Under the pieces are notes generated by a model that ran no database searches, was not told the origin of the DNA, and saw nothing but the letters and a program-made list of their open reading frames with translations. Positions 24,381-49,137 of a stretch of 64,000 nucleotides of DNA are shown here, one piece after another. This stretch comes from a virus (lineage: Duplodnaviria; Heunggongvirae; Uroviricota; Caudoviricetes), in the IMG/VR virus record IMGVR_UViG_3300017978_000250, positions 1 to 64,000 of that record; one strand, 5' to 3'. A program made the translations under genes and the position numbers. The first letter of the stretch is position 1. Every line of letters starts with the position of its first letter.

Positions 24381-24457
24381 TGGTGCCCTTGACAGGACTC
24401 GAACCTGCAGAACCTAGTCTCTCAAACTAGTGCCTATACCAATTCGGCTACAAGGGC
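24381..24457 (-). tRNA. tRNA, apparent anticodon GAG (Leu-type) but class I (short variable arm)
   Basis: Cloverleaf by eye: acceptor GCCCTTG/CAAGGGC, T-loop TTCGAGT, anticodon loop TTGAGAG, encoded CCA; directly downstream of promoter P12. Confidence 0.55.
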
Positions 24458-24475
24458 TTTTTCTTTCAATGATGT

Positions 24476-24504
24476 ATTATACAATGATTTGGGATTTATG
24501 TCAA
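24476..24504 (-). promoter_or_regulatory. sigma70 consensus-type promoter (TTGACA-17-TATAAT)
   Basis: Minus strand reads TTGACATAAATCCCAAATCATTGTATAAT. Confidence 0.7.
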
Positions 24505-25109
24505 GCGCAAAGGAAGCACCCTAGTTGCGCTGATAAAGACTTTTTATAGAATAGTAATATAAAGTATTAAAAATAAAGAACAAAAGACCTCAAGGGTAAT
24601 AATAATGCGAGATTTTCGTCTAGGGTGCTTATGTAAGTATACTGTCTTTTTCAAACACAGAGCCTGTCTTATCGGGCAGGGTGCGACATTATACTTACAT
24701 AAGTGTTCTATCACCTCTCACCACAAGAGTCATAGAACCGAGATGCCTACTCTGTCTACGTATTTATTTTATTCTGGCAGTTGTTAGCGTTCAACTTCCC
24801 TAGATTGTTTCCGTACTCTGAAATTGAGTCGTGTGGTCGAGTCCTAGTGTACCAGATAAGTGATAAGCCAACTTATCATTGGCCATTTGTTATCGTACAA
24901 ATGTAGACGGGGTTTGAGTTTGATATGTCACTAAATGCTCAATCCTGAGAAAGATTTTACGGCATGCCAGCATTTTTTATTGTGAACAGAAGGGGTCTCG
25001 GTTACTGTTTTTAAACTTCTTCATATCAAATTAGGGGTGAATGATTAGGCTGACTCCCAAGCGTCCTCGGGCTTTATTTAAAGTGACGCACACTCACCTA
25101 ATCAATCGT

Positions 25110-26528
25110 TTAAGCCAAGTCGTAACGAGGCTTCATTACGGTCTTCAACATGATTGCTTCTGGGGTGAAGTCATCCATGTTACCGCCCATGATACCACCA
25201 GCAACAGCAGGGCTGAAACCAGAGACTAGAGCAGTACCCTTCTTGTCAAAAGACACAGGGGTGTTACCGTAAGCGGCGTTCAAGTTCCAGAACACAACAT
25301 TAGGAACAGTGTAACCTGCATCCTTAAACTTGCGTTCAATCATTTCGATTGCTGATTCGTCACGGTCTACACCTTGGTCGAATTGCATATCTGAAAAGAT
25401 TACCAATGTTTCAGGCATTTCTGCTTGTGGAACATTGTTCTTAACTGCAACATCCAGGATCAATTCAAACGCCTTGTGCAAGTTAGTGTTAGCTACCTCG
25501 CCTGTGTTCATTTGGTCAATCTTTTGGTTGATGTTACCTGTTAGGTTCACCAACTTAGGACGGTTGCTGAAAGTCAAGAATGTATCCTTGAACTTACCAG
25601 TGTTCTTGTCAGCAAAGTACAAGCCCAAAGAGATTGCAACTTCCAAGCAGGTCAAGCCTGACTTAGAGTTGTAACCACCTGCTGGACAAGTCATTGAACC
25701 TGACGAGTCTACCATTGGCAACACGTTAGCGTCACCGATGTAGTTTGGCAATGCGTTCCATTGCGCTTCCACAACATCCAACTCAGTCTTAGACATAGAG
25801 TTGTAACGACCGATGCGACCCTTAAGGACATCGTACGGGAAGATTGCGGATGCGTTGATTTTAACGCCTGCTTCACCCTTCACCAACTTCGAAACGTATT
25901 CAGCGTATGTTTGACCATGACGACCGAATGCCTTCTTGTATCGTGCGTGAGCAACTGAAGGGACATGTGAGAAGTTGATAGAGTCCCAGTTGTTCGAACA
26001 CATTTGTGTTTCGACAACATTTGTCATACCAACTAGTGTCTTACGATATTGCTTTGGAGTCATACCGAAGAACTCGCGGATTTCACGTGCAAGGGTGCCC
26101 TTACGTGGAGTCCACTTCGCAGCCAAGCCATTGCCGGAACGCAAAGCGTCACCGAGAATGTTGAATGCTTCCCACTTTAGTTTAGGGTCGGTGAAAACGA
26201 ACAAGTCGTCAAATCGACCCACTTCTGGAATCTTCTTCATCAAACGCAAAGCGTCTTCAGGAGAAGTCTTTTCCAAGTGACGCAAAACTGAACGGAACAA
26301 TTCACGTTCACCTGAGCCACCACGAACGTCACGTGCCCATTGAGCAATACGCAACGCCAAATCGGAGTTTTCTACGAAGGCAGCAGTGAAAGCAGGGACA
26401 ATGTCCTTACCTCGGGATGCGCCAATGTTATAGAACAAATCAACGCAAGCGTTTGCGCTGGATGCTCGTGCCTTCATGCCATTGGCAGTGCGGGCTTCTT
26501 GGTTCTTAATCGCTTCTACGAACTTCAT
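25110..26528 (-). CDS. Ro60-like protein (helical TROVE-like N-terminal region plus vWA domain with MIDAS DxSxS)
   Basis: 472 aa; MIDAS motif MVDSSGSM; architecture helical domain plus vWA as in Ro60/Rsr orthologs; Y-RNA-like element in its 5' leader. Confidence 0.55.
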   Translation of the reverse strand: MKFVEAIKNQEARTANGMKARASSANACVDLFYNIGASRGKDIVPAFTAAFVENSDLALRIAQWARDVRGGSGERELFRSVLRHLEKTSPEDALRLMKKIPEVGRFDDLFVFTDPKLKWEAFNILGDALRSGNGLAAKWTPRKGTLAREIREFFGMTPKQYRKTLVGMTNVVETQMCSNNWDSINFSHVPSVAHARYKKAFGRHGQTYAEYVSKLVKGEAGVKINASAIFPYDVLKGRIGRYNSMSKTELDVVEAQWNALPNYIGDANVLPMVDSSGSMTCPAGGYNSKSGLTCLEVAISLGLYFADKNTGKFKDTFLTFSNRPKLVNLTGNINQKIDQMNTGEVANTNLHKAFELILDVAVKNNVPQAEMPETLVIFSDMQFDQGVDRDESAIEMIERKFKDAGYTVPNVVFWNLNAAYGNTPVSFDKKGTALVSGFSPAVAGGIMGGNMDDFTPEAIMLKTVMKPRYDLA

Positions 26529-26552
26529 AGTTTTTCCTTTCTGTGTGTATAT

Positions 26553-26618
26553 GAAGCAGGATACATTTTTTCTTTTATACCAAAAAGTTAAAAGTTGCTG
26601 TTAGTATCCTAAAATTTC
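26553..26618 (-). ncRNA. Y-RNA-like stem element (copy iv) in 5' leader of Ro60-like gene
   Basis: 5' UUUUAGGAUACUAACAGCAAC ... 3' GUAUCCUG; AGGAUAC pairs with GUAUCCU; lies between the Ro promoter and the ATG. Confidence 0.5.
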
Positions 26619-26636
26619 TTACTGTCTAAAGATGTT

Positions 26637-26665
26637 ATTATAACATCCTTTTGAAATACTGTCTG
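26637..26665 (-). promoter_or_regulatory. sigma70-like promoter for Ro60-like gene (CAGACA-17-TATAAT)
   Basis: Minus strand CAGACA then 17-nt spacer then TATAAT. Confidence 0.5.
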
Positions 26666-27116
26666 TACTTTTGGGTACATGACTGGATGGACGAGACGTA
26701 ATTTATTTTTAGGGTCACCCGTCGATATCTCATGACCTTAGCTAACACGTTCACTGTTAGACTGCATATCCCATGTTCTACGGGAGACTATCTTATATTC
26801 TACAAGCACTAGTTAGCCTACCTTGCGGATACTAACATGCGTTAATATTGTTACTTGCTGAAACCATCCAAATATAACAGGTTAGTTGTTGACTGCTTTT
26901 ATTTTACTCAGGCCATCACTCTGAGCTTGTTAGTCTATTTCAATAGCGACCTTCAACGATTCACAGATTTTAACCTGCTTCACTCCAGCCAACTACCATA
27001 GGGTCTAACGATTCATAGTTAATGAATATTGCTGCGCCTAACCTTATGAAACTCGATACAAGTATTATAGCACAAATTCTTTGTTCTACAATACATTTTG
27101 GGTAACTAAATACTGA

Positions 27117-27713
27117 ATGACTTTATACGAAGAACTAGGCTTACAGCCAGACTGCACAATGGACCAGATTAAACTAAAGTATAGAATACTTGCTGGTGTC
27201 CATCATCCAGATAAGGGTGGCGATGAAGAACGATTCAAACGTATAAAGTTTGCTTATGAAGTTCTCAGTGATCCTGCACGCCGTAGACAATACGATGAAG
27301 ACAAGACTACCGATGAACCAACAGATAAACACAAAGAGGCTATTTCAAATCTAGCCGAAGTGTTCTTTGCAATCATTCCCAACTTTGATTGTCTCGGTGG
27401 CAACTTAATAGAAGCCATGAAGAACGAAATCAACAAAGTTAAAGCCATTGCTTTAAAAAACTTAGTTGAGAATGATATGTATATTTCTAATTTGGAAGTT
27501 GTCAAAAGTAAATTGAAGATGAAGAATCCTGAAAAGGAAAACATCATACTAGCATTTATTGAAACTCAATTAGAAACACGGTTAAGAGATAAAATTATCT
27601 ATGAAAAGAGAATTTCTATATCTGACTTGATGTTGTCAATACTTGATGACTATCAGTATGGATTCCTTGAGTTATTCAATGAAGTTCCAACTGACATTGT
27701 TGGCGGAAACTGA
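27117..27713 (+). CDS. J-domain (DnaJ-like) protein
   Basis: YEELGL...YRILAGVHHPDKGG...FKRIKFAYEVLSD: J domain with HPD motif; 3' end overlaps tRNA-Ser on the opposite strand. Confidence 0.7.
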   Translation: MTLYEELGLQPDCTMDQIKLKYRILAGVHHPDKGGDEERFKRIKFAYEVLSDPARRRQYDEDKTTDEPTDKHKEAISNLAEVFFAIIPNFDCLGGNLIEAMKNEINKVKAIALKNLVENDMYISNLEVVKSKLKMKNPEKENIILAFIETQLETRLRDKIIYEKRISISDLMLSILDDYQYGFLELFNEVPTDIVGGN

Positions 27714-27790
27714 GAGATTCGAACTCTCGGAACACGTTAATGTTCGACGGTTTTCAAGACCGTTGCGTTAAACCACTCTGCCAAGTTTCC
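27701..27790 (-). tRNA. tRNA-Ser(UGA)
   Basis: Acceptor GGAAACU/AGUUUCC, anticodon loop CTTGAAA, long variable arm, TTCGAAT T-loop, encoded CCA. Confidence 0.75.
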
Positions 27791-27795
27791 ATTAT

Positions 27796-27871
27796 TGGTG
27801 GAGGTGACAGGGATCGAACCCGCTACCTATTGCTTGCAAAGCAACCGCTCTCCCAGATGAGCTACACCCCC
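27796..27871 (-). tRNA. tRNA-Ala(UGC)
   Basis: Anticodon loop TTTGCAA; G3:U70 pair in acceptor stem; encoded CCA. Confidence 0.7.
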
Positions 27872-27880
27872 CATTATTTC

Positions 27881-36312: not shown

Positions 36313-36380
36313 AACAGGATCGTTTTTGTCGCTAGACATCCAAAGTTAGCTTTTTGATTGCTGAACCGATCCTAAAACTG
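36313..36380 (-). ncRNA. Y-RNA-like stem element (copy v) with compensatory stem change
   Basis: 5' GUUUUAGGAUCGGUUCAGCAA ... 3' CGAUCCUGUUAU: AGGAUCG pairs with CGAUCCU where other copies have AGGAUAC/GUAUCCU. Confidence 0.5.
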
Positions 36381-36382
36381 AG

Positions 36383-36449
36383 GCCCCTGTGAGAGGAATT
36401 GAACCTCTACCACCGCGCGCCGTGTATGCTCCCATTACACTACACAGGG
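36383..36449 (-). ncRNA. 67-nt tRNA-like RNA lacking an anticodon arm
   Basis: Perfect acceptor CCCTGTG/CACAGGG, D arm GTGT-AATGGGAGCAT-ACAC, T arm AGAGG-TTCAATT-CCTCT, only 13 nt where anticodon and variable arms should be. Confidence 0.5.
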
Positions 36450-36456
36450 ATTGAAT

Positions 36457-36576
36457 TGGTGCCGCCGGAAGGATTCGAACCTCCATTACTTCCTTGAAAT
36501 GGAATTTTATGTTGCTGTAAGTACTCTTGTCAGAGTAGACCTTTTTAAGCGTCCTAGCCAATTAGACGACAGCGGC
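36457..36576 (-). ncRNA. 120-nt tRNA-like RNA: anticodon arm replaced by about 65-nt insertion carrying UACUUACAGCAAC motif
   Basis: Acceptor GCCGCTG/CGGCGGC plus CCA, D arm GTC-TAATTGGCTAG-GAC, T arm GGAGG-TTCGAAT-CCTTC; inserted hairpin TACTCT-GACA-AGAGTA followed by TACTTACAGCAAC. Confidence 0.5.
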
Positions 36577-36582
36577 ATTGTT

Positions 36583-36657
36583 TGGAGGGTCGTACAAGAT
36601 TCGAACTTGTGACTGCTGGTTTCGAAGACCAGAACTCTTCCACTGAGTTAACGACCC
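36583..36657 (-). tRNA. tRNA-Arg(UCG)
   Basis: Anticodon stem CTGGT/ACCAG, loop CTTCGAA, T loop TTCGAAT, CCA. Confidence 0.7.
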
Positions 36658-36820
36658 ATTGAATAGGTTTTTGAGAGACCAACTATCTTTCTCAAGGACT
36701 CATTGGCTTGTCTCGATTGAGAGAGTTTAACGACCTTGTGTAGCTACTGGCGTGTCAGTCACAAGAATAGGGACCTAGCGCACAAGGGACTCAATCTCAT
36801 CGTCTATCTCAAAACTTGAA

Positions 36821-36901
36821 TGTGTGTTGCAGGATTCGAACCTACATCCGGAGGTTGTTACGCCTCATGTAATGACGCCCTAACATTTATACTAAACACA
36901 C
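36821..36901 (-). tRNA. tRNA (81 nt, no encoded CCA), anticodon unresolved
   Basis: Acceptor GTGTGTT/AACACAC, T arm GTAGG-TTCGAAT-CCTGC; internal region does not give a clean cloverleaf by eye. Confidence 0.4.
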
Positions 36902-36907
36902 AAAACT

Positions 36908-36982
36908 TGGTGCTCCATGACAGACTTGAACTGCCTTCTCCGGACTACAAAACCGGTGTTCTACCACGTGAACTAATAGAGC
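36908..36982 (-). tRNA. tRNA-Thr(UGU) (Gln not excluded)
   Basis: D stem GTTC/GAAC, anticodon stem CCGGT/TCCGG with loop TTTGTAG, T loop TTCAAGT, CCA. Confidence 0.6.
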
Positions 36983-37113
36983 ATAATATAACAGGATACA
37001 TCTAGTGACCGAGTATGAATCGGTTGCTCTACCTTAGAGCGTATTTGGCAAACGCCAAATGTTGGAATCGAACCAACTGACTTTGTAAGTCGTTGCTGTA
37101 AGTATCCTAAAAC
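36983..37113 (-). ncRNA. Y-RNA-like RNA (copy i) with circularly permuted tRNA-like domain
   Basis: 5' GUUUUAGGAUACUUACAGCAAC; then T arm GTTGG-TTCGATT-CCAAC; acceptor stem closed by loop ATTTGGC-GTTT-GCCAAAT; D arm GCTC/GAGC; anticodon-like arm ACCGA-TTCATAC-TCGGT; 3' GUAUCCUGUUAUA pairs with 5' AGGAUAC; flanked by a tRNA 3' end and a tRNA 5' end. Confidence 0.55.
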
Positions 37114-37188
37114 TGGCGATGCATGGGAGAATCGAACTCCCGTCTCCGGATAGACAATCCGGGATAATGACCATTATATGAATGCACC
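37114..37188 (-). tRNA. tRNA, anticodon GUC-like (Asp?)
   Basis: Anticodon stem CCGGA/TCCGG with loop TTGTCTA, T arm GGGAG-TTCGATT-CTCCC, CCA; AT-rich D arm. Confidence 0.5.
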
Positions 37189-37195
37189 TTAAACT

Positions 37196-37273
37196 TGGCT
37201 CCGTGACTAGGGATCGAACCTAGCTTATTTCTGATTAACAGTCAGACGCCTACACCTTGCTTGCTCTCACGGA
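37196..37273 (-). tRNA. tRNA-Asn(GUU)-like
   Basis: Anticodon stem TCTGA/TCAGA, loop CTGTTAA, T arm CTAGG-TTCGATC-CCTAG, CCA. Confidence 0.55.
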
Positions 37274-37280
37274 ATAAAAT

Positions 37281-37355
37281 TGGTAGCCACGGACAATTTT
37301 GAAATGTCGACCTATCGCTTATCAAGCGAGTGCTCTTCCTCTGAGCTACGCGGCT
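37281..37355 (-). tRNA. tRNA-Ile(GAU)
   Basis: D stem GCTC/GAGC, loop TTGATAA, CCA. Confidence 0.65.
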
Positions 37356-37372
37356 ATATGTTTGGTGCCTCC

Positions 37373-37447
37373 ACCTGGGTTCGAACCAGGGACTCCCACC
37401 TTATCAAGATGATACTCTACCACTGAGTTATAGAGGCATTAATTGTT
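37373..37447 (-). tRNA. tRNA-Ile(GAU)-like (second copy)
   Basis: Loop TTGATAA, T arm CCTGG-TTCGAAC-CCAGG, CCA. Confidence 0.6.
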
Positions 37448-37457
37448 TGGTGGATGT

Positions 37458-37532
37458 AAGTAGATTCGAACTACTGACCTGCTCCGTATGAAGGAGATGC
37501 ACTACCGCTGTGCTATACATCCATTGTATATT
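37458..37532 (-). tRNA. tRNA-Met(CAU)
   Basis: Loop TTCATAC, D stem GCAC/GTGC, T loop TTCGAAT, CCA. Confidence 0.7.
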
Positions 37533-37541
37533 GGTGCGTGA

Positions 37542-37616
37542 TGAAAGGATTGAACTTTCGACCTCTTCAATGTCACTGAAGCGTTCTACCACTGAACTAA
37601 TCACGCATGACAGGAT
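37542..37616 (-). tRNA. tRNA-Val(GAC)
   Basis: Anticodon stem CTTCA/TGAAG with loop GTGACAT, D stem GTTC/GAAC, CCA. Confidence 0.65.
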
Positions 37617-37728
37617 ACATTTACTTTTTGCTGGCTGCTCTACCATTGAGCTACATCCTTTCGGAGATGGGACTCGAACCCACAACAGGCTAGTTGGACA
37701 GTAAAAATTGCTGTTAGTATCCTAAAAC
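37617..37728 (-). ncRNA. Y-RNA-like RNA (copy ii) with permuted tRNA-like domain and GNRA-capped acceptor-like stem
   Basis: 5' GUUUUAGGAUACUAACAGCAAUUUUUACUG; T arm GTGGG-TTCGAGT-CCCAT; stem CATCTCC-GAAA-GGATG; D arm GCTC-AATGGTA-GAGC; 3' GCCAGCAAAAAGUAAAUGUAUCCUGUC pairs back to the 5' end (AGGAUAC/GUAUCCU plus UUUUU/AAAAA); sits exactly between tRNA-Trp 3' end and tRNA-Val 5' end. Confidence 0.55.
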
Positions 37729-37802
37729 TGGCGTCCCCCCAGGGAGTCGAACCCCGGCCTGCGGATTTGGAATCCGTAATGCTACCGTAACACTTGGGAG
37801 AC
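37729..37802 (-). tRNA. tRNA-Trp(CCA)
   Basis: Loop TTCCAAA, T arm CCGGGG-TTCGACT-CCCTGG, CCA. Confidence 0.8.
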
Positions 37803-37809
37803 ATAAAAC

Positions 37810-37886
37810 TGGAACACGGGGTGAGATTCGAACTCACGAAAAACTGGTTTGCAATCAGTCACATTAGACCACTCTGTCACCCGTGC
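37810..37886 (-). tRNA. tRNA-Cys(GCA)-like (second copy)
   Basis: Loop TTGCAAA with A:C 31:39, T arm GTGAG-TTCGAAT-CTCAC, CCA. Confidence 0.5.
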
Positions 37887-37894
37887 ATAAACTT

Positions 37895-37968
37895 TGGTGC
37901 TCAAACGTAGAATCGAACTACGATATCTGTCATACCAAGACAGTGTTCTTCCATTAAACTATATGAGC
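37895..37968 (-). tRNA. tRNA-Thr(GGU)
   Basis: Perfect anticodon stem CTGTC/GACAG, loop TTGGTAT, CCA. Confidence 0.8.
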
Positions 37969-37970
37969 AT

Positions 37971-38047
37971 TGGCGCCACCGAAGAGATTCGAACTCCTGA
38001 CTCCTTCGTTCGTAGCGAAGTACTCTAATCCACTGAGTTACGGCGGC
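37971..38047 (-). tRNA. tRNA-Arg(ACG)
   Basis: Anticodon stem CTTCG/CGAAG, loop CTACGAA, D stem GCTC/GAGT, CCA. Confidence 0.8.
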
Positions 38048-38148
38048 ATAAATTGCTGGCAGTCCTTGGGGCTTGTACCCCTGCGTTTTCTAAGTCGTGT
38101 CCCGTCTGCCGTAGGACGCACGAGCGCAGCTTTCTTCTGGCCAGAATC

Positions 38149-38224
38149 TGGCACCCCCTGATGGACTCGAACCACCGCATGTCGGAATCAAAATCCGATG
38201 CCTTACCAACTTGGCGAAGAGGGT
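38149..38224 (-). tRNA. tRNA-Gln(UUG)
   Basis: Perfect anticodon stem TCGGA/TCCGA, loop TTTTGAT, T arm GGTGG-TTCGAGT-CCATC, CCA. Confidence 0.75.
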
Positions 38225-38300
38225 ATATAAAACAGGATAGAATTTTTACTGGTTGAATTAAAAGTTCAGAGTATAAATGTTGCTGTTACTATCCTAAAAC
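38225..38300 (-). ncRNA. Y-RNA-like stem element (copy iii), no tRNA-like domain
   Basis: 5' GUUUUAGGAUAGUAACAGCAAC ... 3' CUAUCCUGUUUUAUAU; AGGAUAG pairs with CUAUCCU; bounded by the tRNA 3' end at 38301 and the tRNA-Gln 5' end. Confidence 0.5.
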
Positions 38301-38375
38301 TGGTGGAGACCGAGGGAGTTGAACCCTTCTAGTCAGCAATCTTGCAAGGATCACCCGTAGCCCGCTACTGTCCCC
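38301..38375 (-). tRNA. tRNA-like gene, anticodon uncertain (UGC-like)
   Basis: Acceptor GGGGACA/GGTCTCC, T loop TTCAACT, CCA; contains ATTGCTGA motif. Confidence 0.4.
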
Positions 38376-38381
38376 ATATCT

Positions 38382-38467
38382 TGGTGGTGCGTGAAGGAAT
38401 CGAACCTAATTGCTGCCACTACACTTTTAAGCAACTGTTTTACAGACAGCCGTGTAGAACACACACC
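38382..38467 (-). tRNA. 86-nt tRNA-like gene with long extra arm, GUA-like loop
   Basis: Acceptor GGTGTGT/ACGCACC plus CCA, TTCGATT T loop, internal hairpin CTGT-CTGTAAA-ACAG, GTTGCT motif. Confidence 0.4.
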
Positions 38468-38562
38468 ATTAACTAATTTGTAGAGTACGAAACCATCTGT
38501 ACACTTACGCTACTTGACTTCTCACACCCGGGTGTTTACGTCTGGGTCATCACTACAAAACT

Positions 38563-38638
38563 TGGTACTGAGTACGGGAATCGAACCCGTCTTTCCGACT
38601 TGAAAGGCCAGCGTCCTAAACCGATAGACGAACCCAGT
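38563..38638 (-). tRNA. tRNA-Glu(UUC)-like (second copy)
   Basis: Loop CTTTCAA, D stem GTCT/GGAC, T arm ACGGG-TTCGATT-CCCGT, CCA. Confidence 0.55.
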
Positions 38639-38646
38639 ATAAATTG

Positions 38647-38720
38647 TGGTCACCGCGGGCAGAGTCGAACTGCCGCTTCCTGTATCCAAGACAGGGATGC
38701 TACCGTAACATTTCGCGGAG
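38647..38720 (-). tRNA. tRNA-Pro(UGG)-like (second copy)
   Basis: Perfect anticodon stem CCTGT/ACAGG, loop CTTGGAT, T arm GGCAG-TTCGACT-CTGCC, CCA; U2:U71 mismatch. Confidence 0.6.
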
Positions 38721-38727
38721 ATAAATT

Positions 38728-38801
38728 TGGTGCGGGGTAAGGGAGTTGAACCCTTGACTAAACGTTGGCAACGTTTGATTTTACCGTTAAACTAACCACG
38801 C
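38728..38801 (-). tRNA. tRNA-Gly(GCC)-like (second copy)
   Basis: Perfect anticodon stem AAACG/CGTTT, loop TTGCCAA, T arm AAGGG-TTCAACT-CCCTT, CCA. Confidence 0.6.
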
Positions 38802-38808
38802 ATAAACT

Positions 38809-38883
38809 TGGTAGGGGTGCTTGGAATCGAACCAAGATTAGCGAGTTCAAAGCCCGCGGTGATAACCATTACACTACACCCCA
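38809..38883 (-). tRNA. tRNA-Gln(UUG)-like with U1/U72 mismatch
   Basis: Acceptor TGGGGTG, anticodon stem GCGGG/CTCGC, loop CTTTGAA, T arm CTTGG-TTCGATT-CCAAG, CCA. Confidence 0.6.
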
Positions 38884-39722: not shown

Positions 39723-40973
39723 ATGATATTTAACCCGAGAGACTATTCAGTAATTTTTCTTAGTTTCGATGAACCGAACTGTGAAGAAAACTATCAACAC
39801 CTTTTGACACTTTGCCCCACTGCTCTTAGAGTACATGGAGTAAAGGGTTCAGACACCGCACACAAAGAAGTTGCTAAACTTTCTAAAACTTCTAACGTGA
39901 TTATAGTCGATGGTGATAATTTTGTCAAGCCTGAATTCTTCACTAAGACTTTTAACTTAGTAGATTCAGTGGACTTGAGTACTACTGTTTTAAGTTATAG
40001 TGCTTTCAACCCTGTAAACGGGAACTCTTATGGGAACGGTGGCATCAAAGTCTGGCCCGTTTCCAAGCTACTTTCGATGAGAACACACGAAAATGCGACT
40101 GAGGGAACTAGTGTAGACTTTGACTTTAAGAGCTACTTAGAGCTAAATTTTGTTGGTTCTATCACTGACATTACAGCAAGTCCGTTGCAAGCGTTTAAAG
40201 CTGGGTTCCGTGAAGGATCCAAGCTATGCATGGAAAACAATCAAATAGTCACATACGTAAATGAGATAAACTGGAAGAACTACGAAAGACTATGGCGCTG
40301 GACTCATATTGGTGGTGACGTAGAGAACGGTTTATGGGCAATCTACGGAGCTCGTATGGGCTACTACATGTCAATGGTTCACAGGGGTGACTTTTCTAAG
40401 ATTAAAGATGCTGACCATTTGAAGGCAGTGTTCAACGAAACAACGTTTAACTTAACATCTTTGTTTACCGAAGTGAACAAACTTACCCCGTTGATTCGCA
40501 AGGCAACAATGGATAACAGATTTGTTGACATATATGGAATCGAAGAAAGCAAAGAATTCAGAGAGAAAGTTCCCTGCACGATTCGTGGGTTACAGGATTT
40601 CATCAAGTATCAATACAACGAGACACCGCAAGTGTTCTTTGTGGGCGCCGGGTCTGATGAAAATTTCAATAGGCTGTTGCAAAAAGAACCCAAAGCAACA
40701 AGAGTAGATTCATATCTCAGTGCCGCACAACAGGCAACTACAGATTATTTTTGGGTAGTCGATTCAAATCAATATATAGTAGATAGATTCGAATTTGAAT
40801 TCAACGTTCCATTCTACGACAACCCAAAAACTAGAGTGTGGCGAAATCAACGTAATGCAAATGATACAGTATACGGAGAGAACGGAGTAAAGTTGTTGAA
40901 TAGATTTTCAACAATCATAGGCGAACAACTACCGGTCGAATCTATATTTGAAATCAGTAGCATCAATGACTAA
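39723..40973 (+). CDS. hypothetical protein, possible nucleotide-sugar (DxD) transferase
   Basis: Start set at MIFNPRDY; IIVDGDNFV DxD-like motif; function weakly supported. Confidence 0.5.
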   Translation: MIFNPRDYSVIFLSFDEPNCEENYQHLLTLCPTALRVHGVKGSDTAHKEVAKLSKTSNVIIVDGDNFVKPEFFTKTFNLVDSVDLSTTVLSYSAFNPVNGNSYGNGGIKVWPVSKLLSMRTHENATEGTSVDFDFKSYLELNFVGSITDITASPLQAFKAGFREGSKLCMENNQIVTYVNEINWKNYERLWRWTHIGGDVENGLWAIYGARMGYYMSMVHRGDFSKIKDADHLKAVFNETTFNLTSLFTEVNKLTPLIRKATMDNRFVDIYGIEESKEFREKVPCTIRGLQDFIKYQYNETPQVFFVGAGSDENFNRLLQKEPKATRVDSYLSAAQQATTDYFWVVDSNQYIVDRFEFEFNVPFYDNPKTRVWRNQRNANDTVYGENGVKLLNRFSTIIGEQLPVESIFEISSIND

Positions 40974-41937
40974 CCCAATAAACTTTTCTGAAATCCCATT
41001 TGATAAGATAGTAAAATTCGGACAAGACACAATGCTAGACAAAGACTTGTTTAGCGTTAGTTGGATTCTGGGTAGATTCTGCAACTACAAATGCAGCTAT
41101 TGCTGGCCCTATGCTAACAGTCAAACACCTGACCATCAAGAGTTAGAAGTCTATACACGTGCGATAGACGAGATTAGATTCCAAGCTGCGAACAACGGGT
41201 TCACTAAGTTTCACTGGAGCTTTAGTGGGGGTGAGCCCACAGCATACAAACACTTGCCCGTACTAATGAGTAAGGTCTTGTATGATAGTGTTCACATGAC
41301 AACTAACTTGAGCCCAGGCATTCAATGGTGGGATAGATGGTTAGAGAACACACAACTAAGCAGACGCCGTAGTCTCACCGCAAGCTATCATCACGAGTTT
41401 GCAAACGAACAAGAGTTTGGAGACAAGATACTTCACTTGATGAAGAACAATGTATTTGTCACTGTAAATCAAGTTATGGTCCCTGGACACTTTGATGAAC
41501 TATATGAACGTTGTGAACGTTTCCATAAGCGTGGCATCAACGTAACACTAAAGCCACAGAGCAATGAACAAGCAAACGGGATAGTTGATGGTTACACTGA
41601 CGTTATGATACACAAGATGCGTACAGGGTTTCCGCAACAAGTAAACGAACAAGAACTATTGCAAGTTAAACTAATAGACGACACTAAGAAAGTGTGGTGG
41701 CTTGACCAAGCTGAACGTTTCAATAGTTTTGGGTTCAACAAGTTCAATGGCTGGACTTGCAATGCTGGATATCAAAGTGTTATAATAAGGGGTAATGAAG
41801 TTAAACGAGCATACAGTTGCCATGCAGCAGAATTAGGAACATTAGATAACTTTACGCTATTTGATAGCCCTGAGCGATGTGTTACACCTACATGTGTTAG
41901 TTCCGCAGACAGTAAGATACCAAAATGGAAAGACTAA
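40948..41937 (+). CDS. radical SAM enzyme with SPASM/twitch-like C-terminal Cys cluster (paralog group A)
   Basis: CNYKCSYCW CxxxCxxC, FSGGEPT, C-terminal WTCNAGY...SCH...CVTPTC cysteines. Confidence 0.8.
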   Translation: MKSVASMTNPINFSEIPFDKIVKFGQDTMLDKDLFSVSWILGRFCNYKCSYCWPYANSQTPDHQELEVYTRAIDEIRFQAANNGFTKFHWSFSGGEPTAYKHLPVLMSKVLYDSVHMTTNLSPGIQWWDRWLENTQLSRRRSLTASYHHEFANEQEFGDKILHLMKNNVFVTVNQVMVPGHFDELYERCERFHKRGINVTLKPQSNEQANGIVDGYTDVMIHKMRTGFPQQVNEQELLQVKLIDDTKKVWWLDQAERFNSFGFNKFNGWTCNAGYQSVIIRGNEVKRAYSCHAAELGTLDNFTLFDSPERCVTPTCVSSADSKIPKWKD

Positions 41938-42599
41938 TAGTTTTCGGATGCTCACTTTCATATGGTCATGGATTGTCCGATTGTTTCATCCCGCCAAACC
42001 TGCCCGGTGATAAGCATAGCAATCTAGGTTGGCCGTCAATTGTAGCAAAGCACATGAATAGGGTCTGCATCAATAAATCTAGTCCAGGTTCTAGCAACAA
42101 ACGAATATGGAACGAGGTAATTAACTTTGAGTACCACCCAAATGACATAGTAATTATTCAATGGAGTTTCATAGACCGCACTTCAATTATAAAAGTAAAT
42201 AACATAGAAGACATTGGTCCATGGACTAACCATACATTCTACAGCGACATGTATGATGAGAATGATAGCTTGCTAATGTCAAAGCTATTTGTTAATCATA
42301 GCAATATGTTTTTGCTATCAAAGAATATCAAACTATACAACTTAGTGCCAGGTAAAGAAGAACTAGCGTTACTAAAATTTAATGATACTACTACAGACCA
42401 TATACCTGTATATCTTAGTAAACTTAGAACACTATATCCATTTGCATTAGACAACCGACACCCAGGTATTGAATGCCAAGAAGTGTATAGCAAAAAAATA
42501 CTAGACTATCTCAATATACCAAACGATATGCCATATCACGAACCACATAATATGTGTTTTCGAATAAAACGATATTTAAAATTTTTGAGGGACAATTAA
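41925..42599 (+). CDS. SGNH/GDSL-like hydrolase
   Basis: N-terminal VFGCSLSYGHGL (GDS-like nucleophile block) and C-terminal DNRH (DxxH) block. Confidence 0.5.
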   Translation: MERLIVFGCSLSYGHGLSDCFIPPNLPGDKHSNLGWPSIVAKHMNRVCINKSSPGSSNKRIWNEVINFEYHPNDIVIIQWSFIDRTSIIKVNNIEDIGPWTNHTFYSDMYDENDSLLMSKLFVNHSNMFLLSKNIKLYNLVPGKEELALLKFNDTTTDHIPVYLSKLRTLYPFALDNRHPGIECQEVYSKKILDYLNIPNDMPYHEPHNMCFRIKRYLKFLRDN

Positions 42600-43210
42600 T
42601 GTTAATTGATACTGAACATTTACATCATTGGATGAACGCAGTGCGTATCTCCAATAACCCCATGCGTACATTAGACGCATTCTGGGGTGGACAAATCAAA
42701 AGTAAAGAATGGCTTATTGAACGTTTAGAAAGTGTTGTTGACCACACTGAGCCAGTAACGATTGAGATTCACGGCGGGTGGGTCGGAACACTAGCAAGTA
42801 TGTTGTTCCAATCTAAACTAAACATTAAGAGTATTCGCAGTGTTGACCTTGACCCATACGTTCAACACATTTCGGAAGAGATGAATCGTATTGAATATCA
42901 TCAGGGTAGATTCTCAGCTATCACGGCTGACATGTGTAACCTAACAAACTATTCTGCTGACATTGTAATCAATACAAGTTGTGAGCATATCACACAAGAA
43001 CAGTATGACAAATGGTTAGAGAATACACCTGAAAATTCTATGGTCATAGCACAAGGCAATAACTACAAGATAGACGAGCATATCCGAATCAGTGAAGACA
43101 TAGATGAATTTGAACAACAATGTCATCTCACACGCAAGTATGTAGGTACATTGCGTCTTCCACTATATGCCCGTTACATGATTATAGGTTACAAAAATGT
43201 ACAAGTTTAA
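42599..43210 (+). CDS. putative SAM-dependent methyltransferase
   Basis: Start at MLIDTEH after GAGGGA RBS; IEIHGGWVG glycine-rich motif-I-like segment; acidic motif-II-like DIVINTSCEH. Confidence 0.45.
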   Translation: MLIDTEHLHHWMNAVRISNNPMRTLDAFWGGQIKSKEWLIERLESVVDHTEPVTIEIHGGWVGTLASMLFQSKLNIKSIRSVDLDPYVQHISEEMNRIEYHQGRFSAITADMCNLTNYSADIVINTSCEHITQEQYDKWLENTPENSMVIAQGNNYKIDEHIRISEDIDEFEQQCHLTRKYVGTLRLPLYARYMIIGYKNVQV

Positions 43211-44288
43211 TGAATTAAATATTCTGGATATTGAAATCACTAGCAACTGCCAAGCAAGTTGCCCCATGTGCGCCAGAAACCACCACGGTGGCATGGAGAA
43301 CCCTTTACTTAATGTAAAGAGTATTTCAATTGACGGCTTTAAAACTGTTTGCCCTACCGAGTTCATTCAGCAACTAAAGACAATCTCATTCTGTGGTAAC
43401 TACGGTGATCCTATTCTCAACAAAGAACTAGTTGAAATGGTTGAGTACGCCAAAGAGACTAATCCGAATTTAAGTATAGAAGTTCACACAAATGGAAGTG
43501 CAAGAACCACTGAGTGGTGGACAAGATTAGCAAAGGCTCTACCCGAAAATCACCTAATTCATTTTGCGTTAGATGGGTTAGCAGACACACATCACTTGCA
43601 TAGAATTGGTACAGACTTTAACAAGATTATTGAGAATGCAAAGGCGTTTATAGCTGCCGGTGGAAGAGCAAGATGGGTGTACATCACGTTCAAACACAAT
43701 GAGCATCAGCTTGAAGAAGCACGTGAGATGAGCAAGGAACTAGGCTTTGAGAGTTTCCAAGAAAAGCAATCAAGTAGATTCATCACCGAGCCCTGGTTTG
43801 ATGTATTAGACCGTGACGGTAATGTAACTCATAGACTTGAGAGTCCTACTGAACAAAAACTAATCTTCATTGACCGCAAGACTGTTGAGAACTACAAGCA
43901 AATTCTTGGTTCAGCAACAATCGACTGTCAAGTAAAAAAGTCTAAAAGCGTTTACATAGATGCTAATGGACATCTTTTCCCGTGCTGTTATACAGGGGCT
44001 GTTCCTTATATTCACATAAAACCATCTCAATTAGTTTACAACTTTCAACAAGATAATAGACGCACGTTTTTTGAAATGGTTGACCGTTTCGGTGGCATGG
44101 ATTTCTTTAATCTATATAAACACAATATCAAAGATGTCATTGACAGTGAAGAATGGCAAACTATTTGGGGCGATGTTCTAGAAAACAATAAAATGTACAT
44201 GTGTGCTAGAGCATGCGGAAAATTTCCTAAGCCAGTTATAAGTCAAGGTCGTGACCAATTTTTAAAGCTAGATAACTTCAATGAGTAA
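43197..44288 (+). CDS. radical SAM/SPASM-domain enzyme (group B)
   Basis: CQASCPMC CxxxCxxC; FCGNYGDP; C-terminal CQV...FPCCY...CARACGK SPASM-like cluster. Confidence 0.8.
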   Translation: MYKFNELNILDIEITSNCQASCPMCARNHHGGMENPLLNVKSISIDGFKTVCPTEFIQQLKTISFCGNYGDPILNKELVEMVEYAKETNPNLSIEVHTNGSARTTEWWTRLAKALPENHLIHFALDGLADTHHLHRIGTDFNKIIENAKAFIAAGGRARWVYITFKHNEHQLEEAREMSKELGFESFQEKQSSRFITEPWFDVLDRDGNVTHRLESPTEQKLIFIDRKTVENYKQILGSATIDCQVKKSKSVYIDANGHLFPCCYTGAVPYIHIKPSQLVYNFQQDNRRTFFEMVDRFGGMDFFNLYKHNIKDVIDSEEWQTIWGDVLENNKMYMCARACGKFPKPVISQGRDQFLKLDNFNE

Positions 44289-45321
44289 AATCATAAAAAT
44301 AGAATCAACCCAACAGTCTCATATCTTATCAATCAGATGGAATCCTAACAACGTTTGTAATTACAAATGTGAATACTGTTGGCCTGATAACAATGCGGGA
44401 GATTCTCAATCCCCCAAAGACTTAGACCTTACTATTAAAAATTTCAATCATATGATTGAACGTTACAGAACAGAATTAGGAAAAACTAAAATACATCTAA
44501 GTATAGCTGGTGGCGAACCCACACTGTGGAAAGACCTTGCATTGTTCATAGAAGCAATTAAAAAAGAGAATGATATCTATTTCACTTTACTTAGTAATGG
44601 ATCAAGAACACTTAGATGGTGGAAAGAGTATGGACATCTGATAGACAATGCTCACTTGTCTTACCACATAGCACAAGCTGACCCTGACCACATGATTGCG
44701 GTAGCAGATACACTATTTGAACTAAACAAAAAAGTCACAGTAAAAGTATTGATGGATCGTAAGCATTGGCAAGCGGGCTTAGATGTTATTGAATACATGA
44801 AGAAGAATAGCAAACACAAATGGTTCATCATGTCCGGTGAAGTCATTGAACCAGAGGTTGTACAGATAGCAAACATCAAAGTTATCAATGCTGACGATAA
44901 ACAACTGACACCTAAGCAAAAAAAGTTCCTAAAGAATCCACTAAAGAGATTACCAAATCTGTTATGGATATGGAAAAATAGAAAACTAATCTTCGAGGGA
45001 CAAATGAGATTGTACGAGAGTGTGGCTCATTTTGAAGACAAGAAAACAGTCAAAGCAAAGTCTAATACGTATATCAACAGAAACTGGAACAACTTCGAAG
45101 GGTGGAGTTGCGATATAGGATTAGATAACGTTTACATACATTGGGACGGATCAATCAAGGGTGCTTGCAACCAAACTATATTTGGTTTGGATCATTCATT
45201 CAATATTCTAGATGAGAACTTCGTAGATACGTTTGATCCTAAATTTCAACCTTCAATTTGCACTAAGAAGAACTGCTATTGTTCTCCTGAAACACACTTA
45301 TCAAAGCGCAGACTTAGTTAA
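44281..45321 (+). CDS. radical SAM/SPASM enzyme (paralog group A)
   Basis: CNYKCEYCW, IAGGEPTLW, C-terminal WSCDIG...GACNQ...CTKKNCYC. Confidence 0.8.
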   Translation: MSKIIKIESTQQSHILSIRWNPNNVCNYKCEYCWPDNNAGDSQSPKDLDLTIKNFNHMIERYRTELGKTKIHLSIAGGEPTLWKDLALFIEAIKKENDIYFTLLSNGSRTLRWWKEYGHLIDNAHLSYHIAQADPDHMIAVADTLFELNKKVTVKVLMDRKHWQAGLDVIEYMKKNSKHKWFIMSGEVIEPEVVQIANIKVINADDKQLTPKQKKFLKNPLKRLPNLLWIWKNRKLIFEGQMRLYESVAHFEDKKTVKAKSNTYINRNWNNFEGWSCDIGLDNVYIHWDGSIKGACNQTIFGLDHSFNILDENFVDTFDPKFQPSICTKKNCYCSPETHLSKRRLS

Positions 45322-46197
45322 AGGAATATCGGCTGCACATGTGCAGTAGTTTCTATCACATATCACGGGCTCAACAGGGACAGTGAATGAATCGTTATAG
45401 ATATTCCCTAGACTGCCACCCACACGACAAGTAGCACGATGAACTTCCCCGTCCCAGTTAATCATCAGTGATTCTAAGCCCGCGTTACACTTCCAACCCT
45501 TGTATTGATTCTTGTGAAGTTTGATTACATCGTTGGCATGATACATTTCTTCTTTGTCTTTATAGAACAAGATAGTATTTGGACCCACAGTAGAATCACT
45601 AGCTAAGATATAGTCTAAGTCTTTCTGGTCATACTTCATATCGTCAAACAAATCGTGGTCGCCCTCTGTCCAGCGAACTCTACGAAGGTTATACTTGATA
45701 TTGTTTGCTTCTAGTATATGTACTGCTGAACGAACCTCATTCATTTTATCCTGATGACACATAACATTAACTAAGATATGTGCCCCGTGAATCTGTTCAT
45801 GTACTGTTTTAATAGTGTACAATACTTCTGCCCAATTATGCTCAAAGTGTAGACTGAACACGTATTGGTCAAGCAATTGCAATGTGTACCATAATGGCTT
45901 ACGTGTACCGTTAGTAGTCATACTCAGCCACATGTTCTTACTCTTGATATAACTAACTAACCGTTCAATGTCAGGGTGTACCGCCGGCTCTCCACCTGTT
46001 AAACTTAATCGAATAGGCTTTCCAATTTGAGCTAGTCTGTCTACTGTGTTTTGTAGTGTGTAATAATCAGTATGAGGGCTAAAGTTATCGTGGATATAAC
46101 TAGGACAGTAACTACAGTCGTAGTTACAACGCTTGCCCAAGTTCCATTCTACCTTGATACTATCGCCGTGATTCCATCTACTTTTTACTTTATACAT
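45301..46197 (-). CDS. radical SAM/SPASM enzyme (paralog group A)
   Basis: CNYDCSYCP, LTGGEPAVH, C-terminal WKCNAG...CRVGG...CDRNYCTCAAD. Confidence 0.8.
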   Translation of the reverse strand: MYKVKSRWNHGDSIKVEWNLGKRCNYDCSYCPSYIHDNFSPHTDYYTLQNTVDRLAQIGKPIRLSLTGGEPAVHPDIERLVSYIKSKNMWLSMTTNGTRKPLWYTLQLLDQYVFSLHFEHNWAEVLYTIKTVHEQIHGAHILVNVMCHQDKMNEVRSAVHILEANNIKYNLRRVRWTEGDHDLFDDMKYDQKDLDYILASDSTVGPNTILFYKDKEEMYHANDVIKLHKNQYKGWKCNAGLESLMINWDGEVHRATCRVGGSLGNIYNDSFTVPVEPVICDRNYCTCAADIPLTKSAL

Positions 46198-47000
46198 ACA
46201 ACACTTTCTACCTTATTATACTTTAATAGGGTGTCTTTGTCAACTACTGTAATCAAGTCTGCAACCGGAATCAACCCGATATTCAAGTTCTTAAATGGAA
46301 ACTTCTTAAACTTTGCCCAAACATTGATAACTCTCATTCTTAACCAATGAAGTATACTGTTAGATGAGGGTCCAAACTTTACCATAAAGTCTGCGCTATA
46401 ATGGGTTTGAGGTCTAATAGCCTCTGCTATCTTATCATTGTCTTTAAACGCATCTAACACAGTTTTCCCCACATGACAGTAGTTAACGTAAACTGTGCCT
46501 TGTTTCCACTTACATGTAAAGTGTTTTAAGTCTGATGAATCTAATTCACATCTTAGTCTATCCTTAAATGTAACCACTAGTGTTGGGTGCTTGTTAGATG
46601 TTCTAATATTTGATTCCATCTGATGGATCACAATGTTGAACTGGTCTACTGCTCTTTGTACATGCTCGGGGGCACTGTTGTACCAATCAGTGCCCACAGT
46701 TACTTCTCCCCGCAAGTCTTCAAAATATTTGTGAAGATAGTTCATATCGTCCTGAGTAGAATCTACACTAACTTTTCTATCAATGATACGTTGATATCGG
46801 TTGATGATATCAATCTGGGTATTCAATCGTTCGACATAAGTTTCTTTAGTCGTTCCCCAATTAGAAAATCTATCTGTTTCGTATAACGTATAGTTCTTAG
46901 CTACTTCATCAAACCATTTATGTGCAATAGGTGTGTCACGAACGCTGAACTCTAACTCAAGGTTATCAGTGTCATTAGCAATTGTTAACACTAGTTTCAT
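46185..47000 (-). CDS. hypothetical protein
   Basis: 271-aa ORF between radical SAM genes. Confidence 0.55.
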   Translation of the reverse strand: MKLVLTIANDTDNLELEFSVRDTPIAHKWFDEVAKNYTLYETDRFSNWGTTKETYVERLNTQIDIINRYQRIIDRKVSVDSTQDDMNYLHKYFEDLRGEVTVGTDWYNSAPEHVQRAVDQFNIVIHQMESNIRTSNKHPTLVVTFKDRLRCELDSSDLKHFTCKWKQGTVYVNYCHVGKTVLDAFKDNDKIAEAIRPQTHYSADFMVKFGPSSNSILHWLRMRVINVWAKFKKFPFKNLNIGLIPVADLITVVDKDTLLKYNKVESVVCIK

Positions 47001-49097: not shown

Positions 49098-49137
49098 TGA
49101 AATATTTATAGAACAGTCCCGTAGATTAAATATTTTG

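Follow-up and report, generated by a model that had tools for sequence, protein, structure and literature searches.

Do tRNA-shaped RNAs encoded in a phage tRNA array have to be decoders? The question is raised by positions 1 to 64,000 of IMG/VR record IMGVR_UViG_3300017978_000250 (Caudoviricetes), a stretch of 64,000 nucleotides (nt) referred to here as the window. Two unusual tRNA-shaped RNAs lie in it, on the minus strand and inside an array of 44 minus-strand tRNA genes (24381–38883; ARAGORN, whole window). The original prediction, read from the letters of the DNA alone, described both as lacking a functional anticodon arm and proposed that they are tRNA mimics or scaffolds, not decoders. 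The RNAs were found where predicted, and neither is called by ARAGORN as it stands, as had been anticipated. We refer to them as candidate 1 and candidate 2; coordinates are collected in Table 1. Both are real and under selection. Both are also tRNA derived and unlikely to be ordinary decoders, but they differ in the arm at issue: candidate 1 is a conserved tRNA-like RNA that is unable to present an anticodon, and candidate 2 possesses a standard anticodon arm interrupted by an intron-like insert.

Candidate 2 has an acceptor stem (GCCGCUG/CGGCGGC), a D arm (GUCU-AAUUGGCUA-GGAC), a T arm, and an ACCA end, and these elements were present as predicted, together with a hairpin and a motif shared with Y-like RNAs. 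The anticodon arm had been thought to be replaced by this extra sequence; realignment showed that it exists but is split, an outcome that the original prediction had itself named as refuting it. Pairs C27-G43 and U28-A42 are followed by a 44-nt insert (boundary ambiguous by ±1 nt) and then by U29-A41, C30-G40, and C31-G39, and the resulting 5-base-pair (bp) stem and 7-nt UUC loop form only once the insert is looped out. With the insert in place, ARAGORN makes no call; after its removal in silico, the same program reports tRNA-Glu(ttc). Candidate 2 scores 16.8 bits against the Rfam tRNA model, below the gathering score of 29. In a five-ortholog alignment, the split cloverleaf plus the hairpin in the insert (P2) gave 97.8% of cells paired, compared with 40–55% when the partners were slid, and 14 compensatory pairs were counted, a level reached in 0 of 500 shuffles. 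Three of these pairs are in P2, and pair 28-42, which reaches across the insert, itself covaries (U-A in three sequences, G-C in two). A structure without an anticodon arm was therefore rejected on the split stem, the ARAGORN result, and the covariation. Homologs of candidate 2 were found in loci L127 and L147, Citrobacter phage Ci1, Aeromonas phage APT65, and Erwinia jumbo phages.

The insert carries a module composed of the capped P2 hairpin followed by a single-stranded ACAGCAAY motif, and the same motif identifies a set of separate small RNAs in the window. The candidate 2 sequence UACUUACAGCAAC is identical to positions 37092–37104 in a Y-type RNA (nine hits in the motif search versus 2.2 expected). 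Five Y-type RNAs (Y1–Y5) are present, all on the same strand as the candidates, and they share a frame that runs helix strand, NN, (A/U)CAGCAAY, a variable interior, AAAAAN, complementary strand, UGU. Y2–Y5 begin 6 nt past a tRNA 3′ end, which for Y5 is that of candidate 1, whereas Y1 adjoins a gene for a Ro60-like protein and not a tRNA. Y2 and Y3 each hold the parts of a tRNA-like domain in permuted order (T arm, acceptor-like hairpin, D arm), and the Rfam YrlA model (RF02553) aligns to these elements of Y2 at 18.8 bits, where the gathering score is 69. Candidate 2 has an open acceptor end, and a GACA loop closes off the helix beside its motif. Candidate 2 and the YrlA-like Y-type RNAs are circular permutations of each other, which upholds the suggestion that candidate 2 is the linear-order counterpart of the permuted Y RNAs: the hairpin and ACAGCAAY module are the same, the acceptor is open, and the Ro-type helix is loop capped.

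Candidate 2 is one member of a family. A pattern of ACAGCAA plus a T arm matched at least 120 stretches in viral contigs, and a generic acceptor-stem and T-arm detector was run over 1.4 Mb of fetched loci. This yielded 44 elements of 95–135 nt that were missed by ARAGORN and in which the motif occurs as such or in a close variant (ACNGCAA, UCAGCAW). The anticodon stem is complete, though split, in 32 of the 44, with the insert mostly at 28/29 or 29/30 and sometimes at 31/32; ARAGORN calls none of these 32 with the insert and all 32 after its removal. When the 5′ context of one element was combined with the 3′ strand of another, a full stem appeared in 5.5% of trials, compared with the 73% observed. 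The module hairpin, assessed in 41 insert-bearing tRNAs, has a mean of 6.7 contiguous pairs versus 3.6 in shuffles; its strands take 36 distinct sequences among the 41 elements, and its apex recurs as UC(A/U)U-GNNN-(G/A)(U/A)GA. By eye, several members seemed to have a basal helix (P1) that closes the insert, but its score (4.19 versus 4.29 in shuffles) did not separate it from chance, and it was dropped.

Isolated phages contribute to this family. Citrobacter phage Ci1 encodes two insert-bearing tRNAs, one of which (L122 13988–14101) is annotated "tRNA-OTHER/tRNA-Pseudo-AAC"; Aeromonas phage APT65 encodes two plus a short Y-type RNA; and Erwinia jumbo phages encode one, labeled "tRNA-Phe(aaa)" in pEa_SNUABM_12 (L270 1448–1563). 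Serratia phage BF and Vibrio phage D479 also gave matches, and across Ci1, pEa_SNUABM_12, and D479, the GenBank labels include "hypothetical protein." No description of the ACAGCAA module or of tRNAs bearing it was found in the literature, which is not proof because most subscription journals fell outside the coverage. Insert-bearing tRNAs are apparently an undescribed class that is widespread among phages, isolates included. A second kind of interrupted tRNA, without the ACAGCAA module, was seen at L050 8073–8215, L089 1359–1512, and L108 2989–3123 and 9601–9740, where a tRNA-like element is nested in the anticodon region of another tRNA.

The anticodon loops of the split-stem elements keep the form of a decoder: each has 7 nt, U33 is present in 27 of 32, and position 37 is a purine in 31 of 32. 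Decoding identity is not kept. When the insert was taken out and the anticodon hidden from the comparison, the closest ordinary phage tRNA had the isotype implied by the anticodon in 2 of 32 cases, compared with 57% for ordinary tRNAs of similar divergence and 69% for ordinary tRNAs overall. A32 occurs in 13 of 32 insert-bearing tRNAs (41%) versus 7 of 893 ordinary tRNAs of the same loci, a 50-fold enrichment, and five of the 32 place Ser or Leu anticodons on short-variable-loop (type I) bodies. Anticodons also differ between close orthologs with identical acceptor stems: UUC in the window and GUU in L147, with UAC plus C33 in APT65; UGG in L047 and UGU in L091; GUC in L139 and GCU in L054. 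The nearest relative of an insert-bearing tRNA is another insert-bearing tRNA in 18 of 32 cases, although ordinary tRNAs outnumber them 893 to 31, and the anticodon differs in 11 of those 18. Insert-free alleles were absent from the 893 ordinary tRNAs of the same loci (best score, 0.51). Taken as a whole, the family behaves like a lineage of its own, made up of tRNA-derived RNAs in which the shape of the anticodon arm is conserved and decoding identity is not.

Candidate 2 belongs to the subfamily that is the most tRNA-like of the whole set. It carries U34, U35, C36, A37, U11-A24, U13-G22, a 4-nt variable loop without residue 47, and G1-C72, and these residues make up nearly the full identity set of Escherichia coli glutamyl-tRNA synthetase (GluRS; set from PMC9976931). 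UUC is retained in the orthologs of L127, Ci1, and an Erwinia phage, that is, in most Glu-type orthologs but not all. The proposal that the two RNAs are mimics rather than decoders therefore stands as far as their tRNA origin and the improbability of ordinary decoding are concerned, but with this near-complete synthetase set, candidate 2 may still be recognized by GluRS or may decode after splicing.

The protein encoded just downstream of Y1 offers a presumptive partner for the module. Sequence-only PDB searches with this protein or its profile gave marginal matches. An AlphaFold (AF2) model built on 37 diverse homologs (predicted local distance difference test, 82.8; predicted template modeling [TM] score, 0.83) consists of a HEAT-repeat ring and a vWA domain, and the DxSxS motif of the metal-ion-dependent adhesion site is invariant in the alignment. 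The top five Foldseek matches in the PDB are all Ro60, full length, with probability 1.0 and TM scores of 0.55–0.63; on this model, the protein has the Ro60 fold. A DUF2828-type Ro60-like protein is encoded by approximately 710 isolated phage genomes, in some records under the name "Ro-like RNA binding protein."

The genes for this protein and the module-bearing RNAs are strongly linked. Among the 120 loci fetched by RNA pattern alone, a Ro60-like gene was present in 31–32 within the few kilobases (kb) fetched, and the proportion for clean insert-bearing tRNAs was 15 of 24 loci. The median distance from an insert-bearing tRNA to the Ro60-like gene is 354 nt, and the two share a strand in 23 of 23 cases; in the window, 9.9 kb separates the candidate RNAs from the gene, with the tRNA array in between. 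The motif also occurs in Y-type RNAs beside Ro60-like genes in Shigella phage Sf14, Listeria phage LMSP-25, APT65, and Ci1. In APT65, the insert-bearing RNAs flank the Ro60-like gene, and there is no ordinary tRNA in that locus. The Sf14 gene sits immediately ahead of the tRNA block, whose first tRNAs are interspersed with four Y-type RNAs. In LMSP-25 (L271 approximately 3160–3460), three tandem Y-type RNAs with the ACAGCAA module, preceded by a TTGACA-type promoter, lie directly upstream of the DUF2828 gene, and an RtcB-type ligase gene is found 1.3 kb downstream of the Ro60-like gene. Because of this linkage and the Ro60/Y RNA precedent, we infer that the protein binds the module; the insert would then probably be where the phage Ro60-like protein docks.

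Candidate 1 reads CCCUGUG UA GUGU AAUGGGA GCAU AC ACGGCGCGCGGUGGU AGAGG UUCAAUU CCUCU CACAGGG G, then CCU. The claim that it has no functional anticodon arm was confirmed. A 7-bp acceptor stem, a D arm (GUGU-AAUGGGA-GCAU), and a T arm (AGAGG-UUCAAUU-CCUCU) are all present, and only 17 nt separate the D stem from the T stem; there is no contiguous 5-bp anticodon stem with a 7-nt loop but a mini-arm with a 5-nt loop instead. In a permissive search, the Rfam tRNA model (RF00005) matched at 42 bits, above its gathering score of 29, by treating the anticodon arm as deleted. The sequence recurs identically in two other assemblies, L123 and L149, which argues against an assembly artifact, the explanation that the original prediction had named as one that would undo it, and diverged homologs occur in L144/L146 and L147/L148. 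These three sequence variants differ from one another in the acceptor stem at pairs 2-71, 3-70, and 6-67 and in the T stem at pairs 49-65 and 50-64, and all five changes are compensatory in the RNAalifold cloverleaf. The 17-nt center, ACACGGCGCGC(G/A)GU(G/A)GU, varies at just two positions, both of which RNAalifold leaves unpaired in a mini-arm of 4 bp and a 5-nt loop. Two other structures were rejected: an extended D hairpin, GUGUA...UACAC (RNAfold), is not kept in L144, and the canonical 4-bp D stem fits all variants; a 3-bp CAC/GUG stem in the center is broken in L144.

No homologs of candidate 1 beyond the three variants were found in two viral scans, one metagenome scan, and a covariance model search of 0.84 Mb of phage loci. 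The covariance model, made from the three variants, recovered only those at 97–98 bits, with ordinary tRNAs next at approximately 42 bits, and nearly all matches in the metagenome scan arose by chance in GC-rich DNA. All three variants end in G-CCU, not CCA; CCA is encoded by the array tRNAs inspected by eye (36583–36657, 36908–36982, and those preceding Y-type RNAs). The mini-arm contains the sole occurrence of GCGCGC in the window, in which no complementary partner was found. A more speculative possibility is that two copies of candidate 1 pair through this invariant loop to form a two-headed tRNA-top-half particle. Other tRNA-like RNAs without a normal anticodon arm (L127 3083–3153, minus strand, 71 nt; L007 3354–3418, minus strand, 65 nt) lie within related arrays and near Y-type RNAs, which suggests that candidate-1-like elements recur with different centers.

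We give modest preference to the explanation that the module-bearing RNAs are Y-RNA-like scaffolds for the phage Ro60-like protein, and not ordinary decoders. In the phage family to which candidate 2 belongs, the 5′ strand of the anticodon stem bears a protruding Y-RNA-type module, a capped hairpin followed by ACAGCAAY. The tRNA-shaped body would make the RNA a substrate for the end processing that serves the array tRNAs (RNase P, 3′ trimming, and CCA) and would give it a stable L shape; the module would recruit the Ro60-like protein; and the tRNA part would form a second, effector-facing surface that includes a hairpin still like that of an anticodon arm and, for candidate 2, the identity set of GluRS, in parallel with the way the tRNA-like domain of YrlA is supposed to work. 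The particle could act in RNA repair or quality control, or in counter-defense, together with the neighboring kinase, phosphoesterase, and ligase. Candidate 1 would be a separate conserved mimic of the top half of a tRNA (acceptor, T, and D elbow), whose specific surface would be the invariant GC-rich mini-arm.

Several observations weigh against this explanation. The tRNA-like form of the anticodon loops, and the GluRS set and retained UUC of candidate 2, are not features that a pure scaffold would obviously need. The canonical motif for Ro binding is GNCGAAN0-1G (PMC4201824) and not ACAGCAAY, and with a protein that is only a distant paralog of Ro60, the analogy may break down. The nearby RNA ligase genes are compatible with splicing. 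Candidate 1 has neither the module nor evidence of linkage to the Ro60-like gene, and its assignment was made by exclusion.

Comparison with known RNAs places candidate 2 close to, but outside, the YrlA RNAs. An RNA of ~60 nt, mascRNA, is a cloverleaf with a stunted anticodon arm that is recognized by tRNA end-processing enzymes, and in engineered "tRNA scaffolds," a foreign RNA is embedded in the anticodon stem of a tRNA for processing and stability. Candidate 1 resembles the former, with a stunted anticodon arm on a cloverleaf of similar size, and candidate 2 resembles the latter, with foreign RNA carried in its anticodon stem; neither shows a sequence or Rfam relationship to these RNAs, both are bacterial-virus RNAs, and candidate 2 keeps its anticodon hairpin. 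The mascRNA is mentioned in PMC9976931.

YrlA RNAs (RF02553; Chen et al., 2014, PMC4201824) mimic tRNA, and that of Mycobacterium smegmatis is cut by RNase P and receives CCA (PMC4201824). Like the RNAs described here, YrlA RNAs are encoded beside a Ro60-family gene and join a module of Ro-type helix and motif to a tRNA-like domain, in which a T arm, a D arm, and an acceptor-like stem are present, and the RNase P cut at the 7-bp "acceptor" of M. smegmatis YrlA, with CCA addition, in effect gives an open-acceptor molecule like candidate 2. The differences are that YrlA has its 5′ and 3′ ends in the Ro-binding stem, a closed acceptor hairpin (the permuted order), and no anticodon hairpin, whereas the parts of candidate 2 follow the native order of a tRNA, with CCA encoded, the module hairpin capped, and the anticodon arm retained; that the motif is ACAGCAAY (ACAGCAAC in candidate 2) and not GNCGAAN0-1G (PMC4201824); and that the partner protein matches DUF2828/DUF7788 and not Pfam TROVE. 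Neither candidate gave an Rfam YrlA match at E ≤ 10. Candidate 2 would therefore work like a Y RNA but not be a YrlA, because the motif and the topology of the terminal stem fail and the Rfam threshold is missed.

Among phages, the Ro60 protein of Thermus phage phiLo binds two phage Yrl RNAs with a CGAA motif (PMC12135203), and gp130 of Bas63 is a Ro60-like protein, encoded upstream of a tRNA block, that counters the ppl defense; the authors of that study surmise that Y RNAs may be among the annotated tRNAs (PMC11482910). These systems share with the window a phage-encoded Ro60-fold protein, with the small RNAs encoded beside it in phiLo and the gene preceding a tRNA block in Bas63. They differ in that the phiLo Yrl RNAs carry the CGAA motif on a plain stem-bulge-stem, and neither paper describes the ACAGCAA module or tRNAs carrying it. 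In the P100-like phage CKA15, very abundant unexplained transcripts lie upstream of an Rsr-like gene, and the protein is packaged in virions (PMC12282133). The tandem Y-type RNAs of LMSP-25 may correspond to these transcripts.

The alternative that survives best is that the insert is a new protein-dependent tRNA intron: a putative endonuclease would cut it out and phage enzymes would rejoin the exons into a working tRNA, a tRNA-Glu for candidate 2. The kinase, phosphoesterase, and Rnl1 would seal the exons here and RtcB in other phages, and the excised piece may itself be a Y-like RNA for the Ro60-like protein. Non-canonical tRNA introns are found in archaea, where bulge-helix-bulge introns occur outside position 37/38, and in bacteria, where group I introns occupy anticodon loops. 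As in these, the anticodon arm is interrupted, at variable positions that recall the archaeal introns (28/29, 29/30, and 31/32), and removal restores a textbook tRNA in all 32 elements. The insert of 44 nt is, however, far too small for a group I intron and has no match to a ribozyme family in Rfam, and no bulge-helix-bulge motif was identified, though no formal search for one was made. It also differs from known tRNA introns in carrying a conserved module of protein-binding type that is shared with non-intron RNAs, the free-standing Y-type RNAs, and in having no intron-less alleles among the 893 ordinary tRNAs of the same loci.

The tRNA bodies are similarly divided in what they say about an intron. 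U33 and R37 are largely retained, and candidate 2 keeps its GluRS identity set (set from PMC9976931), as expected if a working tRNA is produced. Yet body and anticodon disagree in 30 of 32, A32 is present in 41%, some Ser or Leu anticodons sit on type I bodies, and close orthologs whose bodies are identical can carry different anticodons. In many cases, an ordinary tRNA already supplies the anticodon in question; ARAGORN finds two ordinary tRNA-Glu(UUC) genes in the window. As for the enzymes, ligase, kinase, and phosphoesterase genes adjoin the Ro60-like gene, and RtcB is near it in LMSP-25, but ligase genes also accompany phages with Y-type RNAs only, no splicing endonuclease was found among the open reading frames (ORFs) scanned, and neither a conserved boundary sequence nor a basal helix was seen. 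On balance, we regard an intron as rather unlikely. The fuller version, in which this is a new class of phage tRNA intron, cut by a protein and resealed by Rnl1 or RtcB, with the excised 44-nt hairpin-ACAGCAA RNA serving as the Y RNA of the Ro60-like protein, appears more doubtful.

It is improbable, in our estimation, that the RNAs are decoys or baits for host defenses that target tRNA, such as anticodon nucleases or acceptor-end toxins, to which they would present mimics of the anticodon arm or the top half, with the Ro60-like protein recruited to the engaged complex. The rapid diversification of the anticodon-like loops between orthologs while their shape is retained is consistent with such a role, as are the resemblance of many loops to classic nuclease targets (Lys, Glu, Asn, Asp, and Arg), the RNA repair enzymes encoded nearby, the retention of only the acceptor, T, and D top half in candidate 1, and the countering of a defense system by the Ro60-like protein in Bas63 (PMC11482910). 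The idea is entirely inferential, however, with no nuclease or toxin partner identified. The proposed target of ppl is DNA and not tRNA (PMC11482910); anticodons for Thr and Pro, which are common among these RNAs, are not known nuclease targets; and A32 would probably alter recognition.

Decay into functionless pseudo-tRNAs, with candidate 2 a tRNA-Glu gene holding an inserted Y-RNA fragment and candidate 1 the product of an internal deletion, is disfavored and very improbable: the silence of ARAGORN on both, the "tRNA-Pseudo" and "tRNA-OTHER" labels given to homologs by GenBank pipelines, and the recombination-prone nature of phage tRNA arrays, here with an HNH endonuclease gene, would fit it, but every helix of both RNAs is maintained by compensatory changes across diverged phages, candidate 1 hardly varies at its center even as its stems covary, and the candidate 2 type occurs in Citrobacter, Aeromonas, Erwinia, Serratia, and Vibrio phages and many metagenomic lineages, always co-oriented with and close to a Ro60-like gene.

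Table 1. Coordinates of the candidate RNAs, their parts, the Y-type RNAs, and neighboring features in the window
Feature	Position	Strand	Description
Candidate 1	36384-36449	-	66-nt tRNA-like RNA; acceptor, D, and T arms plus mini-arm; 3′ tail G-CCU
Candidate 1 mini-arm	36409-36423	-	AC-G-GC[GCGCR]GU-R-GU; 15 nt, nearly invariant; replaces anticodon and variable arms
Candidate 2	36457-36576	-	tRNA-Glu-like RNA, 120 nt including ACCA; 44-nt insert in 5′ strand of anticodon stem
Anticodon-position loop of candidate 2	36494-36500	-	AUUUCAA; UUC at 36496-36498; A32
Insert of candidate 2	36504-36547	-	UAAAAAGGUC-UACUCU-GACA-AGAGUA-CUU-ACAGCAAC-AUAAAAU; between tRNA positions 28 and 29
P2 hairpin of module in candidate 2	36522-36537	-	UACUCU-GACA-AGAGUA; 6 bp, GACA loop
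Single-stranded motif ACAGCAAC of candidate 2	36511-36518	-	Conserved; presumed protein-binding core
Y1	26559-26609	-	Short Y-type RNA directly upstream of Ro60-like gene
Y2	36994-37107	-	YrlA-like; permuted tRNA-like domain framed by GGAUAC-UU-ACAGCAAC...GUAUCC
Y3	37613-37722	-	Second YrlA-like Y-type RNA
Y4	38235-38294	-	Short Y-type RNA
Y5	36317-36372	-	Short Y-type RNA directly 3′ of candidate 1; GGAUCG-GU-UCAGCAAUC...ACAAAAA-CGAUCC
Gene for protein with predicted Ro60 fold	25110-26528	-	Pfam DUF2828 and DUF7788; PHROG 850 "RNA-binding protein"; just downstream of Y1
Rnl1-type RNA ligase gene	20299-21240	-	PF09511, E 3.5e-16
Polynucleotide-kinase-like ATPase gene	21209-21670	-	
Phosphoesterase gene	21681-22226	-	PHROG 547, E 1.8e-50
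GOLLD RNA	31568-32033	-	Rfam, 208 bits; tRNA-Lys(CTT) gene 31898-31970 nested inside
HNH homing-endonuclease-like ORF	34786-35418	-	Embedded in tRNA array

The RNA healing and sealing genes form a trio (20299–22226) on the same strand as the Ro60-like gene and downstream of it. No close phage isolate was found: a nucleotide search of the phage collection with a 4-kb region returned generic tRNA-sized matches only. The HNH ORF may be a source of the shuffled gene order between related arrays. The array also contains a 97-nt tRNA at 30487–30583 (minus strand; Rfam, 56.3 bits) that is uncalled by ARAGORN and combines a normal anticodon arm (UAU) with a 30-nt variable arm bearing the hairpin GUGGAU-AGAUA-AUCCAC. 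The tRNA at 36820–36902 (minus strand) is odd, with 13 nt added to the D loop and an 8-nt anticodon loop (CGUAACAA); its Leu(gag) call was forced by ARAGORN, and it scores just 39.7 bits in Rfam. Beside it, an inter-tRNA spacer of approximately 160 nt (36660–36819, minus strand) is near-identical in L144 (approximately 2300–2450), whose anchor protein is 42% identical; the spacer has no Rfam match, and a thermodynamic structure signal is absent (z = −0.5). Outside the array, at least eight radical-SAM ORFs lie beside it at 40948–58310, several with SPASM or B12-binding domains, and genes for an SPFH/Band-7 protein, an AAA ATPase, NAMPT, and a NadM-Nudix enzyme (NAD salvage) at 615–5886 (minus strand) probably serve counter-defense or metabolism.

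Ro60/Y RNA particles are conserved from bacteria to humans. The DUF2828-type Ro60-like protein is carried by Felix O1-like, P100-like, T4-like, and jumbo phages used in therapy and biocontrol, and for this protein, the hairpin plus ACAGCAAY is a candidate RNA module. The module appears in two topologies, as free-standing permuted Y RNAs and as genuine tRNAs with the module grafted into the anticodon stem, which accounts for features mislabeled "tRNA-Pseudo," "tRNA-OTHER," "tRNA-Phe(aaa)," and "hypothetical protein." It also suggests an identity for the abundant CKA15 transcripts and offers a handle on how Bas63 gp130 counters host defense. If the intron explanation were true, a tRNA gene would double as a Y RNA host gene, and the "tRNA repair" enzymes would double as a splicing machine. 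Culturable phages (Ci1, APT65, and the Erwinia jumbo phages) supply natural constructs with which to ask whether the tRNA half of a Y RNA engages synthetases, processing enzymes, or nucleases.

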